DNA of 3,595 bases, taken from Escherichia coli. GTDB taxonomy: Bacteria; Pseudomonadota; Gammaproteobacteria; Enterobacterales; Enterobacteriaceae. How positions within the stretch are numbered: the first letter of the stretch is position 1; each line of letters begins with the position of its first letter. Below are positions 1 to 3,362 of this stretch, piece by piece. Under the pieces are notes generated by a model, which made no database searches, was not told where the DNA came from, and was given only the letters and a program-made list of their open reading frames with translations. The position numbers were made by a program, and so were the translations under genes. The stretch lies in NCBI RefSeq assembly GCF_003334305.1, contig NZ_QOWS01000052.1; one strand, 5' to 3'.

Positions 1-135
1 TTACATAAGATCATTGATACTCAACGTATCGACATGATCATTGTTGATGAAGGCATTCCTGCGGATAGTCTGGAAGGCTTGCGAAAGGCTGGGGTTGAAG
101 TGATTCTGGTCGGGGAGCTCGCGTCTTCGCTGTGA
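1..135 (+). CDS. agaR: 3' end (last 44 codons plus TGA) of a DeoR-family sugar-responsive transcriptional repressor, AgaR-like; 5' part lies upstream of the window
   Basis: Frame 1 is open from base 1 to TGA at 133-135 and reads [44 protein letters not shown], a typical C-terminal end of a DeoR-type effector domain. The symbol rests on memory of E. coli AgaR and on convergent synteny with a garD-like gene; not verified by search. Confidence 0.55.
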
Positions 136-197: not shown

Positions 198-1354
198 TCA
201 GGCCACCGGTGCCGGGTTAAACACTGCCAGCTGGTTATGCAATCCCCATTGATCCGAGATGGTTTTCTTCTTCCCGCTGGCGACGTCGAGAATAAAGTGG
301 AACAACTTCCAGCCCACCTCTTCAATGGTCTCTTCGCCGGTAGCGATAGTGCCTGCGTTAATATCCATTAAATCAAACCAGTGGTTCGCCAGCCCGGTGC
401 GGGTCGCCATTTTAATGACGGGTACCTCCATCAGGCCGTACGGCGTACCACGGCCGGTCGTAAACACTTGCACGGTGATACCCGAAGCCACCTGTTGCGT
501 GCCACAGACAAAATCGCTGGCTGGCGTCGCGGCGTAAATTAATCCGCGTTTAGTCGGGTGTTGACCGGGCGACAGCACTTCAACAAGTGCGGTTTTACCC
601 GATTTAGCAATGGAGCCGAGTGCTTTCTTTACCACGTTGGCGAGGCCGCCCTTTTTGTTGCCCGGCGAAGGGTTGGCGCTGCGGTCGGTTTTGCCCATAT
701 CGGGATAGTTATCGTATCAGGCCATCTCTTCGAGCAGACGCCTGCCCACTTCTTCATTGATGGCGCGTGGCGTTAACAGATGAATGGCGTCGCGTACTTC
801 AGTGACTTCGGAGAACATCACCGTTGCGCCGCAGCGCACCAGCAGGTCAGAGTCGTAGCCGACAGCGCGGGGTTAGTGGTAACGCCGGAGAACGCGTCGC
901 TGCCACCGCACTGCATGCCCACCACCATCACTTCGCCACCGAAGTTTGGGTTCAGCGCAATATTATGGATGGTGCGAATTGGCACCACGGCGGCCGGTAC
1001 ATTAATCGCTACGCCACAGCCGTAGAGGTGGTTCAAGTCGACCACGCCGTCGATGCTCAGGTATTTCGGCAGCAGGTCGCGTTCGATAATTTTAACCACG
1101 TAGTCCTCAACGTCTGCCATGCAGTGCACGCTGGTGGTAATACCCAACAGGTTTTTGGTGCCCACGCTGCCGTCGGCGTTGCGGTAACCTTCAAAGGTGT
1201 AATCTTCCTGCGGCGGCTGCGGCTCCGGCACTTTGGTCGCCCGAGGCAGGGTGTTAAGCGGCGGCGCTTTCGGTAGCGTGACCGTGGATTCGTCGATCCA
1301 GCTGCCTTTGGCGACATCGCGTACCGTGTAACCGATAGCGAATGATTTCACCAT
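198..1354 (-). pseudogene. garD: Galactarate/altronate dehydratase family (GarD/UxaA-like) gene remnant, disrupted by an in-frame stop and a frameshift and apparently lacking N-terminal and internal segments
   Basis: ORFs 198-698 and 818-1450 on the - strand are in different frames. Both carry family motifs ([20 protein letters not shown]-terminal FNPAPVA; SWIDES, GYRNADGSVGTKN, HLYGCGV, MQCGGSDAFSG). Re-reading the gap in the downstream frame gives continuous protein-like sequence ([24 protein letters not shown]...LLEEMA) ending at an in-frame TGA (717-719 on +), six codons before MGKTD. The frame switch lies within 858-876. Sequence upstream of about 1355 has no family resemblance. Confidence 0.7.
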
Positions 1355-1516
1355 TATGAGGAAGGTTGTTATCCCTTTTCTGGCGTATTCGTCATTCCAT
1401 TCGTATCCCCGGTACCGGATGTTTATATCGTACAGTGCCGGTGCTGGCATGCTTTCCTGCAGGTCTGCACCGGTTTAACAAACAAAACTTAACAGAGTCT
1501 GAAGGAGTAGTATTCC

Positions 1517-1654
1517 GTGCAAATAACCGAAGCGTTACTTTCAGAGCCGGGAGATATCTGGCGTTTTGTTCAGCAGGCGGTGGACCACTGGCCGCGTCTG
1601 CTGGCAGTCCACTTCACGCGTCATTCGACCAGAGTAAATATTGATGATTACTAG
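1517..1654 (+). CDS. Candidate small ORF (45 aa, GTG start) with a strong Shine-Dalgarno; hypothetical
   Basis: GAAGGAG at 1501-1507 lies 9 nt before GTG at 1517. The ORF reads MQITEALLSEPGDIWRFVQQAVDHWPRLLAVHFTRHSTRVNIDDY with stop TAG at 1652-1654. It is below the length cutoff of the ORF track. No family recognised; it could be the N-terminal stump of a destroyed gene. Confidence 0.3.
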   Translation: MQITEALLSEPGDIWRFVQQAVDHWPRLLAVHFTRHSTRVNIDDY

Positions 1655-2127
1655 ATTCGTGTATTTTATCAGGCATTTTACTTGCGAATAAATCCCCTTG
1701 CTATCCAGCGAAACCACTCAGGTAGCTATTACCATATGTGGTAATACACTAGTTACAGGAAAAATATGCAAGTTCCGCAATACGTTGTGTGTTGCTCCTT
1801 AGCCAGGATCTTTTCTTCCATGCGAGATATGACAACAATTTTGAGGAAGGATGTTCGTAACTGGTAGAGTTACTACAACAAGCATGGGAGGCTCTGACTC
1901 TGACAGACATTGTACTGTGGAATGTTGTTACAGGTTGGGGCGGCAACCGTGCCAGGAGACCATGAGCCGTTCACGGCATTAAAGGCCACACTTCAGTCGT
2001 TTACATTCCCTATGGTGGCAGGCATCTTCCATTAAGGCGTCAGAGCGTTACCAACGTTATGTTGTCATGGCTCATCTTTCATAGTCGATGCTTATCTGGT
2101 GGCTGAAACTAGCCGCAGATAAAGAGT

Positions 2128-2560
2128 GTGAAGTTGATACCATGGAGTGGAGTGACGTGCAGGCAGGAGATTCGCTCTATGCAGGGTTGTGAGATGAATT
2201 CAAACCGGCTGGCAGCGCCAGTGATATTCGAAGATTCGTCCGGTTGTTACCCAGTATGCATTAAAAACCCAGACATTATGGACAATATAACGGCTTCTAC
2301 AACAAGGAAGTGCCTGTTTACCATCCGGGTGTAATGACTCACCTTTGTGGGCTTTTGCCCGTCGCGCTCTTAACGTTGAAGACATTCTCTGCCTGCTGAT
2401 TCAGGACTGCGACAAAAGCCATATCTGGCTACTGGTCAAGGATGACCAGCGTCTGGAGTAGGTGATAAGCCAAATAGATAAGCTGGAATATGTGGTGAAA
2501 GTGCAACGTAATCAGTCCAATCCGACGATGTTTAACAAGATTGTGGTGTTTTTTCAGTAA
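2128..2560 (+). other. Possible decayed + strand coding remnant convergent with the DeoR regulator gene; identity unknown
   Basis: An ORF at 2179-2334 (51 aa) has AGGAG 9 nt upstream of its ATG. A second frame is open 2291-2457 (…[31 protein letters not shown]), hits an in-frame TAG at 2458-2460, then continues [32 protein letters not shown] to TAA at 2558-2560, one base from the regulator stop at 2562-2564. Open-frame lengths are only weakly above chance. Confidence 0.2.
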
Positions 2561-2561
2561 G

Positions 2562-3344
2562 TCATTCGTCTTCTGAATCAGGTGTAATGATCTTTACAGA
2601 ACCATTCTGGCAGTGCGTAACATAATCTGCCGGTAACGGACGATCGCTAATCAGAACGTCAAATGCAGAGATCGGTGCGAGGCTGGCAGAGGCCACTTCA
2701 TCGAACAACGCGTGGCGGGCGAGCAAAATTTTCCGTAGTCCACGGTTCATCGCTTTACGCTTAGTGGCAAGATCTTCAGGGTTAAACCAGCTGACGCCAA
2801 AGTGATTATGCACACCGCTGGCGGAAATAAATATTTTTCGCGGATTGAGAGAGTCTAATGGCGAAGAGTTACTGGCATCGTAAAAAGCATCACTTCTGGC
2901 ACGATACGTACCACCACAAAGTATTGCTGTTACATTAGGCTTTTCATTCAACGCAACAAAGACGCGATGTGAGTAACAGATGCCGGTGAAGGTGATTGCA
3001 TCCGGGATCATGCTTATAACGAGTGGTATCTCCTGGCCATTATCAAAGAAGATCAGATCATTTTCATTAACCATTCCGGCAGCCAGAATTGCAATAGGTA
3101 AGTCATCACGATGATTTTTTGGAACGTCATGGATTACTGGCATGGATGGCGCGGGTTTATTCACCATTACAATATAGCCACCCAGTAGGGTCAGTGGCAG
3201 AGGTTCATCTTCCTGATGGAGATCGCGACGAATAGTCATTACAGAAACTTCCAGCATTCGCGCTGCGTCTTTCAAATGGATTCTGTCGGTTTTCTTAAGC
3301 AGTTCCATCAAACGTCGGATACGCTCTTTTTGCTTCGTTTCCAT
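2562..3344 (-). CDS. ygbI: DeoR-family transcriptional regulator, 260 aa (N-terminal HTH plus DeoR C-terminal effector domain); YgbI-like
   Basis: Intact 261-codon ORF in the track; the likely true start is the ATG at 3344-3342, with GGAG 9 nt upstream on the - strand. HTH signature IHLKDAARMLEVSVMTIRRDL near the N-terminus and DeoR C-domain features (DLIFFDNG, AILCGGTY, KIFISASGVH, FDVLISD). The symbol is from memory of the E. coli YgbI N-terminus (METKQKERIRRL…) and is less certain than the family. Confidence 0.85.
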   Translation of the reverse strand: METKQKERIRRLMELLKKTDRIHLKDAARMLEVSVMTIRRDLHQEDEPLPLTLLGGYIVMVNKPAPSMPVIHDVPKNHRDDLPIAILAAGMVNENDLIFFDNGQEIPLVISMIPDAITFTGICYSHRVFVALNEKPNVTAILCGGTYRARSDAFYDASNSSPLDSLNPRKIFISASGVHNHFGVSWFNPEDLATKRKAMNRGLRKILLARHALFDEVASASLAPISAFDVLISDRPLPADYVTHCQNGSVKIITPDSEDE

Positions 3345-3362
3345 CAACTCTCTCTCCGTAAG

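Follow-up and report, generated by a model that had tools for sequence, protein, structure and literature searches.

In a 3,595-nt stretch of Escherichia coli DNA (hereafter the window, to which all positions refer), the segment at 2320–2560 is, judged by its sequence, a dead and 5'-truncated copy of ilvN, the gene for the small subunit of acetolactate synthase I. We regard it as very probable that this relic was excised together with a deo module from a native ilvBN–uhp site and decayed afterwards, which is the best explanation of the observations as a whole. The preliminary description of the window had suspected a decayed gene, convergent to a regulator and damaged by a frameshift and a nonsense codon. 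This was borne out by tblastn searches and alignments, and the gene turned out to be ilvN. The pseudogene status is already known from standard annotation, as PGAP flags 2334–2560 on the + strand as a pseudogene in several RefSeq genomes under the names 'acetolactate synthase small subunit' or 'ACT domain-containing protein; frameshifted; internal stop'.

When E. coli IlvN was used as a tblastn query, residues 18–28 matched frame +3 (2322–2354) and residues 29–96 matched frame +2 (2354–2557), the latter with 58 identities in 68 positions, an E-value of 1e-35 and a stop at Gln64. The frames listed in the preliminary description do exist (frame +1 at 2128/2179–2334; frame +2 open over about 2291–2560 except for one TAG), but the order that it had assumed for the coding sequence, +1 followed by +2, has to be replaced by +3 followed by +2, and the TAG that it had placed at 2458–2460 lies one base further to the right. 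It had also called the statistical support weak, which is far from the case for the 3' part, where the E-value is well beyond chance, and which is correct for the open reading frame (ORF) at 2179–2334, where no family was matched. Likewise, the absence of a homologue in any frame, which it had held to speak against a gene, was seen for the 5' ORF and not for the 3' part.

In the DNA alignment, the homology to ilvN starts abruptly at 2320, within codon 17, and ends one base past the stop codon. Considering this abrupt start and the unrelated sequence upstream of it, the ilvN copy is 5'-truncated in addition to being frameshifted. The relic is 91.8% identical to the resident E. coli ilvN over 243 nt, and identities to other genera are 82.7% or lower. 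After the frameshift and the stop were repaired, its translation scored 132 bits against the NCBIfam model NF006036 (cut-off 128; profile positions 24–102 of 102) and 4.4e-22 against the Pfam domain ACT_AHAS_ss (PF22629; model positions 8–67 of 67). As it stands, the truncation, the 1-nt deletion and the TAG leave no complete and uninterrupted ORF across the ACT domain. There is also no ilvB immediately upstream with which an AHAS small-subunit gene would be co-transcribed; no similarity to IlvB was found in the window (best E=1.3, tblastn), and ilvB adjoins deoQ in none of 5,426 complete E. coli genomes.

Compared with E. coli ilvN (b3670, the regulatory small subunit of acetohydroxy-acid synthase I), the relic retains the same C-terminal end, ...VFFQ-TAA, whereas it is without codons 1–16, the promoter and the ilvB partner, and it has the frameshift, the nonsense codon, three shared missense changes and seven lineage-specific ones. 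Furthermore, it lies on a genomic island beside deoQ, whereas E. coli ilvN lies upstream of uhpA. As a dead and already annotated fragment, the relic is of little functional import. The positions of the features in and around it are collected in Table 1.

Table 1. Features of the window, with position, strand and the basis of each assignment.
Feature	Position	Strand	Basis
agaR, 3' end	1–135		RefSeq annotation
UxaA-family pseudogene, frameshifted	198–1367	-	RefSeq annotation
Hypothetical ORF, 45 codons	1517–1654		RefSeq annotation
Decayed inovirus-type Gp2 family gene	1517–2035	+	tblastn to ~1900; 1910–2035 by eye
Island DNA between two pseudogenes, holding ORF 2128/2179–2334	2036–2319		no similarity found
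psi-ilvN, 5'-truncated (codons 17–96; 3' 241 nt), by sequence	2320–2560	+	blast, tblastn, NCBIfam, PGAP
Mini-ORF, 21 codons, artefact	2334–2399	+	ilvN Met22 start, frameshifted remainder
Frameshift lesion, 1-nt deletion at codons 28–29 (T4 run against T5 in intact ilvN)	2353–2356	+	alignments
Nonsense lesion, CAG (Gln64) to TAG	2459–2461	+	tblastn, alignment
Single-nt spacer between the convergent stops of psi-ilvN and deoQ	2561		alignment of loci
DeoR-family regulator gene, intact (deoQ by name assignment; 2562–3344 in the RefSeq annotation)	2562–3347	-	PGAP, NCBIfam

Over 1400–2620 (1,221 nt tested), the window matches the chromosomal sequence of E. coli UMB200201_11 at 100% identity. In the Gp2 pseudogene to the left of the relic, two plasmid Gp2-type proteins gave tblastn E-values of 2e-30 and 2e-31 over residues 1–128, with internal stops and a frameshift, and the similarity extended to about 1900. 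The tail of this pseudogene up to 2035 was assigned from a comparison by eye of the frame 1910–2035 with the C-terminus of the plasmid proteins, without a tool score. This Gp2-type pseudogene was all that the plasmid matches yielded on the left side, and 1389–2319 had no match in the phage collection. When both strands of 1900–2700 were searched for promoter-like sites, intrinsic-terminator-like hairpins and direct or inverted repeats, none was found, and Rfam at a threshold of E<=1 returned nothing relevant for the region.

On the other side of the relic, the preliminary description had noted that the two stop codons nearly meet, and indeed the TAA at 2558–2560 is 1 nt away from the - strand regulator stop at 2562–2564. 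PGAP names the regulator 'DeoR family transcriptional regulator' (WP_001295538.1). Its score against the NCBIfam DeoR model is 230 bits, below the cut-off of 244, so that it is a DeoR paralogue. The genes beyond it are annotated as rbsK, fucP and aldose 1-epimerase, and we take the regulator and these rbsK-, fucP- and epimerase-type genes to be the deoQ-deoK-deoP-deoX deoxyribose regulon. The names deoQKPX follow PMC7924626, which in its treatment of the regulon cites Christensen et al. 2003, and PMC5382810. The arrangement agrees with such a module: the DeoR-family regulator is divergent from genes for a kinase, a permease and a mutarotase, and it is convergent to ilvN. With pN of 0.020 and pS of 0.099 between island lineages, deoQ is under purifying selection.

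The module in the window appears to be the same as the deoK operon known from pathogenicity islands of E. coli, PAI I-AL862 and its relatives, to which PMC5382810 and PMC7545054 refer, both citing Bernier-Febreau et al. 2004; in ABU 83972, for example, the regulator is followed by deoK-, deoP- and deoX-type genes. The same resident and island sequences are present in Nissle 1917 and CFT073-type genomes. Among the complete E. coli genomes, 1,596 of 5,426 (~29%) carry deoQ, and the junction between psi-ilvN and deoQ is likewise present in 1,596. In the literature searched, which covered sources later than the 2004 primary description, the passages on the island deoK operon make no mention of an ilvN remnant beside it, and PMC3326304, on small RNAs of PAI-I AL862, reports none near the deo genes or ilvN.

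To find the native setting of the module, relatives were scanned with the regulator protein as query and one genome per species, and 42 deoQ loci were obtained, which include Salmonella enterica subsp. arizonae and diarizonae, Citrobacter, Pseudocitrobacter, Klebsiella indica, Leclercia, Trabulsiella, Kosakonia and Phytobacter. An intact homologue in relatives, for which the preliminary description had suggested looking, was found in 28 of the 42 loci, where ilvN and ilvB are intact and immediately convergent to deoQ. They lie about 1.3 kb off in three more loci, and no ilvN match above the reporting filter was obtained for 11. On the far side of the deo genes, uhpA and uhpB were present in 14 of the 42. 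Of the 12 loci listed, 11 have the same junction of stop, single nucleotide and stop between ilvN and deoQ, among them those of Pseudocitrobacter, Salmonella, Citrobacter and Trabulsiella; the junction reads CAGTAA-G-TTATTC in Pseudocitrobacter and CAGTAA-G-TCATTC in the window. The Leclercia junction is not clearly of this form. The order uhpBA-deoXPK-deoQ><ilvN-ilvB is therefore native to Salmonella, Citrobacter and most other deoQ genera that were sampled.

E. coli K-12 has the corresponding empty site. Its ilvN–uhpA spacer of 75 nt (TAA followed by CCGCTCAAGGCTTGAACA...GCGCTTATCGTTAAGGTAAGCGC...) and the deoX–uhpA spacer of Salmonella are homologous, starting with the base that directly follows the stop, and the hairpin GCGCTTATCGCTAAGGTAAGCGC is kept just after deoX on the island. 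Because the gene order, the junction, the deoX hairpin and the homology of the K-12 spacer are all shared, the island module is an excerpt of the native locus that begins at ilvN codon 17 and ends with the deoX terminator. A remnant of uhpA was looked for on the right side of the island module and none was found, the deoX terminator hairpin being the only survivor there. Compared with the native ilvBN-deoQKPX-uhpABC locus of Salmonella enterica and Citrobacter, the island has the same gene order, orientation, 1-nt spacing of the stops and deoX hairpin. In contrast, the native locus has intact ilvN and ilvB and has uhpA after deoX, whereas the island holds only the last 241 nt of ilvN, has island DNA on both flanks and carries deo genes that are 70–84% identical to those of the native loci.

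From these comparisons, the probable history would be as follows. The deo module would have been cut out of a native ilvBN-deoQKPX-uhp site and placed onto E. coli genomic islands, with the left breakpoint inside ilvN codon 17 and the right breakpoint just past the deoX terminator hairpin. The ilvN piece would thereby have lost its promoter, its start codon, the first β-strand and its ilvB partner, and with these gone it could never have yielded a working subunit. The 1-nt deletion, the nonsense codon and many missense changes would have been gained afterwards, with neutral drift since. Its physical attachment to the end of deoQ presumably explains why the relic has persisted. The value of the relic is that of a provenance marker, as it places the left breakpoint of the deoQKPX module at ilvN codon 17 and points to the E. 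coli lineage, rather than Salmonella, as the source of a trait linked to competitiveness in the gut and urinary tract.

The alleles of the relic fall into two island lineages, of which lineage A includes the window and lineage B includes ABU 83972, UMNK88 and ETEC-2264. The breakpoint, the 1-nt deletion, the TAG and three missense changes are common to both lineages, so that the inactivation predates the split between A and B; the deletion in the T4 run was present in all seven island alleles examined. Since the split, the ilvN frame has gained seven nonsynonymous and no synonymous changes in A, and nine nonsynonymous and two synonymous changes in B, and the reading frame thus bears no sign of purifying selection. 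The two lineages differ at 20 of 241 positions of psi-ilvN (8.3%), which is close to the pS of 0.099 for deoQ. Considering this divergence together with the small number of synonymous changes, the relic drifts at the neutral rate. It is probably not expressed.

As for the donor, Bernier-Febreau et al. 2004 reportedly proposed that the deoK operon was transferred from Salmonella. We consider it rather likely instead that the piece came from an E. coli-lineage chromosome which once had deoQKPX at its own ilvN–uhpA site, and not directly from Salmonella. Out of 240 sites, the A/B ancestor, as reconstructed, is separated from three E. coli ilvN alleles by 11–14 differences and from other genera by 35–54, compared with 7–10 differences among the three alleles. 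Escherichia sp. E13S3, a non-coli Escherichia whose ilvB is ~7.7% different from the E. coli alleles, provides a closer outgroup. E. coli and E13S3 show fixed differences at 18 sites; the relic agrees with E. coli at 17 of them, and four of these shared states are derived in E. coli. For the deo genes of the island, identity to any genus sampled is 70–84%, not higher than the 77–86% of core ilvB and uhpA. An E. coli-type relic next to such distant deo genes argues that an ilvN of the E. coli type was once the neighbor of deoQKPX, and a recent import from Salmonella is unsupported. That the relic is of the E. coli type rather than the Salmonella type is only a mildly novel point.

A more specific version is that the deo operon of pathogenic and probiotic E. 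coli was rescued onto islands from the ilvN–uhpA locus of the E. coli lineage itself, rather than imported from Salmonella, and that a flush TAA-to-TAA deletion later emptied the core site. We advance this tentatively, as an idea that is slightly more apt to be wrong than right. E13S3 has the same empty ilvN–uhpA junction as K-12, and a native locus in the E. coli lineage therefore requires either repeated loss or a spread of the deletion allele by recombination. If the version is true, the competitiveness trait in the gut and urinary tract would be an ancestral trait that was lost and retained, not a foreign acquisition.

The same empty site in E13S3, which makes a late native locus in the E. 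coli lineage awkward, is one of the observations in favor of a different origin, namely that the ilvN fragment came with deoQKPX from a foreign, Salmonella-like donor and was later overwritten by gene conversion from the resident ilvN. The resident gene, ~92% identical and present in the same genomes, could have served as the conversion donor, and certain metagenome contigs that join the 5' part of resident ilvN to the 3' end of the relic may reflect exchange, if not mis-joining. Such an origin would also fit the view, expressed in the part of PMC5382810 concerned with the deoK operon, that this operon was acquired from Salmonella enterica. Nevertheless, we consider it unlikely. The island deo genes are 75–83% identical to two Salmonella loci and thus no closer to Salmonella than core genes are, which gives no sign of a recent donor in Salmonella. 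At polymorphic synonymous sites (GGT/GGC, CAC/CAT and CAG-ATA-GAC/CAA-ATT-GAT), the relic of ABU 83972 differs from the strain's own resident ilvN, so that conversion has not occurred recently. In addition, conversion would tend to mend lesions, yet the deletion, the TAG and the three missense changes are common to both lineages.

The metagenome contigs were obtained from a scan for an uninterrupted E. coli-type ilvN adjoining deoQ, which returned a contig of 25.8 kb, and from an exact-protein look-up, which returned 12 contigs in which ilvB-ilvN-deoQ-deoK seemed to be intact. On the left, these contigs share 99.9% identity with the resident yidL–ilvN region of ST73-type strains (Nissle, CFT073, ABU 83972), and on the right they are virtually identical to the island of the same strains. 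The switch between the two occurs inside a 21-nt stretch that ilvN and the relic have in common, and it is followed by the drifted AGTACG of the relic (I91S, A92T). The four contigs with SPAdes names have a k-mer coverage of only ~1.6–2.8x, and a join between resident ilvN and deoQ occurs in none of the 1,596 deoQ-positive complete genomes. We rejected the 12 contigs as an ancestral native Escherichia locus on the grounds of this joining of two regions of the strain, the low coverage and the absence from complete genomes. Assembly chimerism is the most likely explanation for them, and at best they would be rare secondary recombinants. In metagenome assemblies of low coverage, chimeric joins apparently arise at the 240-nt repeat that the relic and the resident ilvN form.

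Returning to the relic as a product of excision and decay, we considered whether its DNA might have been retained for a non-coding function, either to provide deoQ with a 3' UTR or termination region or to give rise to antisense RNA. Between the native convergent genes there is no intergenic spacer, and with the deoQ stop only 1 nt from the relic, any deoQ terminator must fall inside it; moreover, the relic and deoQ are found in equal numbers of complete genomes. This co-occurrence is accounted for by tight physical linkage alone, and neither the hairpin and inverted-repeat search of 1900–2700 on both strands nor Rfam provided a candidate element. The relic also diverges at about the synonymous rate of deoQ, with no conserved sub-block apparent. 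A retained non-coding role is thus improbable.

The DNA upstream of the relic contains the ORF at 2179–2334, which the preliminary description had taken as a possible N-terminal part of the broken gene. This does not hold, as the ilvN homology begins only at 2320 and the ORF merely runs 15 nt into psi-ilvN. No similarity was found between 2128–2319 and E. coli ilvB/ilvN or the 42 related loci by tblastn, MAFFT or blastn (word size 7 against 43 loci, the 42 related ones and one resident E. coli ilvBN locus). An ilvB remnant or the ilvN 5' end was accordingly rejected for this segment, the three methods giving nothing upstream of 2320. A resemblance between MDNITAST... and MQNTTHDN... was also discounted, as a count by eye with the two anchored at the right end gave ~29% identity, which is at the random level.

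Both this ORF and the mini-ORF at 2334–2399 are in all probability chance reading frames. In the 3.6-kb window, 66 ORFs reach a length of 20 codons or more, and many in plainly non-coding frames have 60–90 codons, so that the ORF at 2179–2334 does not exceed what chance provides. The 68-residue form of the ORF matched nothing in NCBIfam or PHROG, and a search of 5.8 billion proteins gave 14 matches (protein clusters), all of which are alleles of its own locus; those entries that bear source names are E. coli hypothetical proteins. These database alleles include differing frames, fusions into ilvN frames and truncations by IS elements (P0003, P0005–P0010, P0012). PGAP annotates no feature over the upstream block in any of the 30 records listed, out of 1,595 genomes that carry the block. 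Between lineages A and B, the ORF has eight nonsynonymous and four synonymous codon changes, spread 3/5/5 over the codon positions, which is not the pattern of purifying selection. The uniformly low A/B divergence of 1900–2250 was considered as a constraint on the ORF and rejected, the block covering a clear pseudogene tail and divergence being patchy across the module. Because the pseudogene tail is equally low in divergence, the block points to mosaic ancestry rather than selection.

The preliminary description was correct about the good ribosome-binding site, an AGGAG at 2165–2169 that stands 9 nt before the ATG at 2179, and about the presence of TAATG at 2332–2336 followed by the 21-codon ORF. 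Its reading of the latter as a translationally coupled hydrophobic ORF is not upheld. The sequence GTAATGAC corresponds to the ilvN codons Val21-Met22-Thr23, and TAATG (from GTA-ATG, Val21-Met22) is also present in intact ilvN. The mini-ORF starts with MTHLCGL, which is IlvN residues 22–28, and the remainder is the frame left by the 1-nt deletion. In a coupled pair, the downstream ORF would be conserved in start, length and stop, and the stop of the mini-ORF is not conserved. It is very doubtful, to the point of near dismissal, that the 51-codon ORF is a genuine island small-protein gene, possibly coupled through TAATG to the mini-ORF: the AGGAG at good spacing and the ATG are kept and the frame is open in 7/7 aligned alleles, and some pipelines call a hypothetical protein, but its homologues are confined to its own locus, nonsynonymous changes prevail, its database alleles are broken or fused, PGAP passes over it in the records listed, and no promoter-like site was found within 1900–2700. 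The case also serves as a warning that a pseudogene junction can yield, as by-products, both an ORF preceded by a good ribosome-binding site and a TAATG 'coupling' signal. The stop of the mini-ORF, the TGA at 2397–2399, results from a C>T change at 2397 that is private to the window allele, and the six other alleles examined read through it.

In K-12, the spacer between ilvN and uhpA (L051 3728-3802) was homologous to the deoX-uhpA spacer of Salmonella (L007 and L013, about 1310-1400), with the homology beginning at the first base past the ilvN stop codon. It appears that deoQKPX was deleted at the K-12 junction flush from one stop codon to the other, and a TAA microhomology may have taken part. 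On the island, the terminator hairpin after deoX was kept (L001 11541-11575), and both the 13 nt before the hairpin and the T-tract after it were lost. In the resident locus of ABU 83972 (L063 862-2330), an insert of ~1.4 kb carrying a DUF6708 gene was located between ilvN and uhpA and was flanked by a duplication of the 12 nt that end ilvN (TTTTTTCAGTAA); other genes occupied the same position in AGR6137. Insertion at the ilvN-uhpA junction appears to have occurred repeatedly.

In 12 ENA metagenome contigs (L052-L062, e.g., OMBO01000503.1), ST73-type resident ilvBN was fused to island deoQKP, and the join fell at a 21-nt stretch common to ilvN and its relic, the truncated ilvN pseudogene of the island. 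The IlvN encoded by these contigs ended in ...NKSTVFFQ. In the four of the 12 whose names state coverage, k-mer coverage was ~1.6-2.8x. The joined contigs are probably assembly chimeras, seeded by the 240-nt imperfect repeat formed by ilvN and the relic. When the resident E. coli ilvN alleles (L005, L051 and L063) were compared, at most 13 of 291 sites differed (the maximum being K-12 versus ABU 83972), and all differences were synonymous, leaving the proteins identical. For a core gene of 96 codons, so much silent polymorphism is unusual.

The part of the window that lies left of the deo module, the deoxyribose regulon, is pieced together from decayed genes, as listed below. The Gp2-type pseudogene shared 38-61% identity with residues 1-128 of plasmid homologues that are 170-187 residues long, in an alignment split over two frames and containing internal stops. 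The PGAP annotation covers no more than the first 45 codons of this pseudogene (1517-1654), which it calls a hypothetical protein.

Window features left of the deo module
Feature	Position	Strand	Remarks
agaR 3' end	1-135	+	UxaA-family pseudogene directly after
UxaA-family dehydratase pseudogene	198-1367	-	According to PGAP, lacks the N-terminus and has a frameshift and an internal stop
Decayed inovirus-type Gp2 family gene	1517-2035	+	Alignment to plasmid homologues extends to ~1900; tail (~1900 to 2035) assigned by eye comparison

Island lineages A and B, compared as the window and L003, diverged unevenly, by 19% in 1500-1599, ~1.7% in 1900-2199 (5 differences in 300 nt) and 8-13% in 2300-2499. 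Considering that the low-divergence block (1900-2250) covers both a pseudogene tail and unassigned DNA, mosaic recombination is the likeliest cause.

The start site of the regulator on the minus strand was slightly ambiguous (3344-3347): a mechanical ORF call placed it at a TTG at 3347, giving 261 codons, and PGAP used an ATG one codon later, giving 783 nt and 260 codons.
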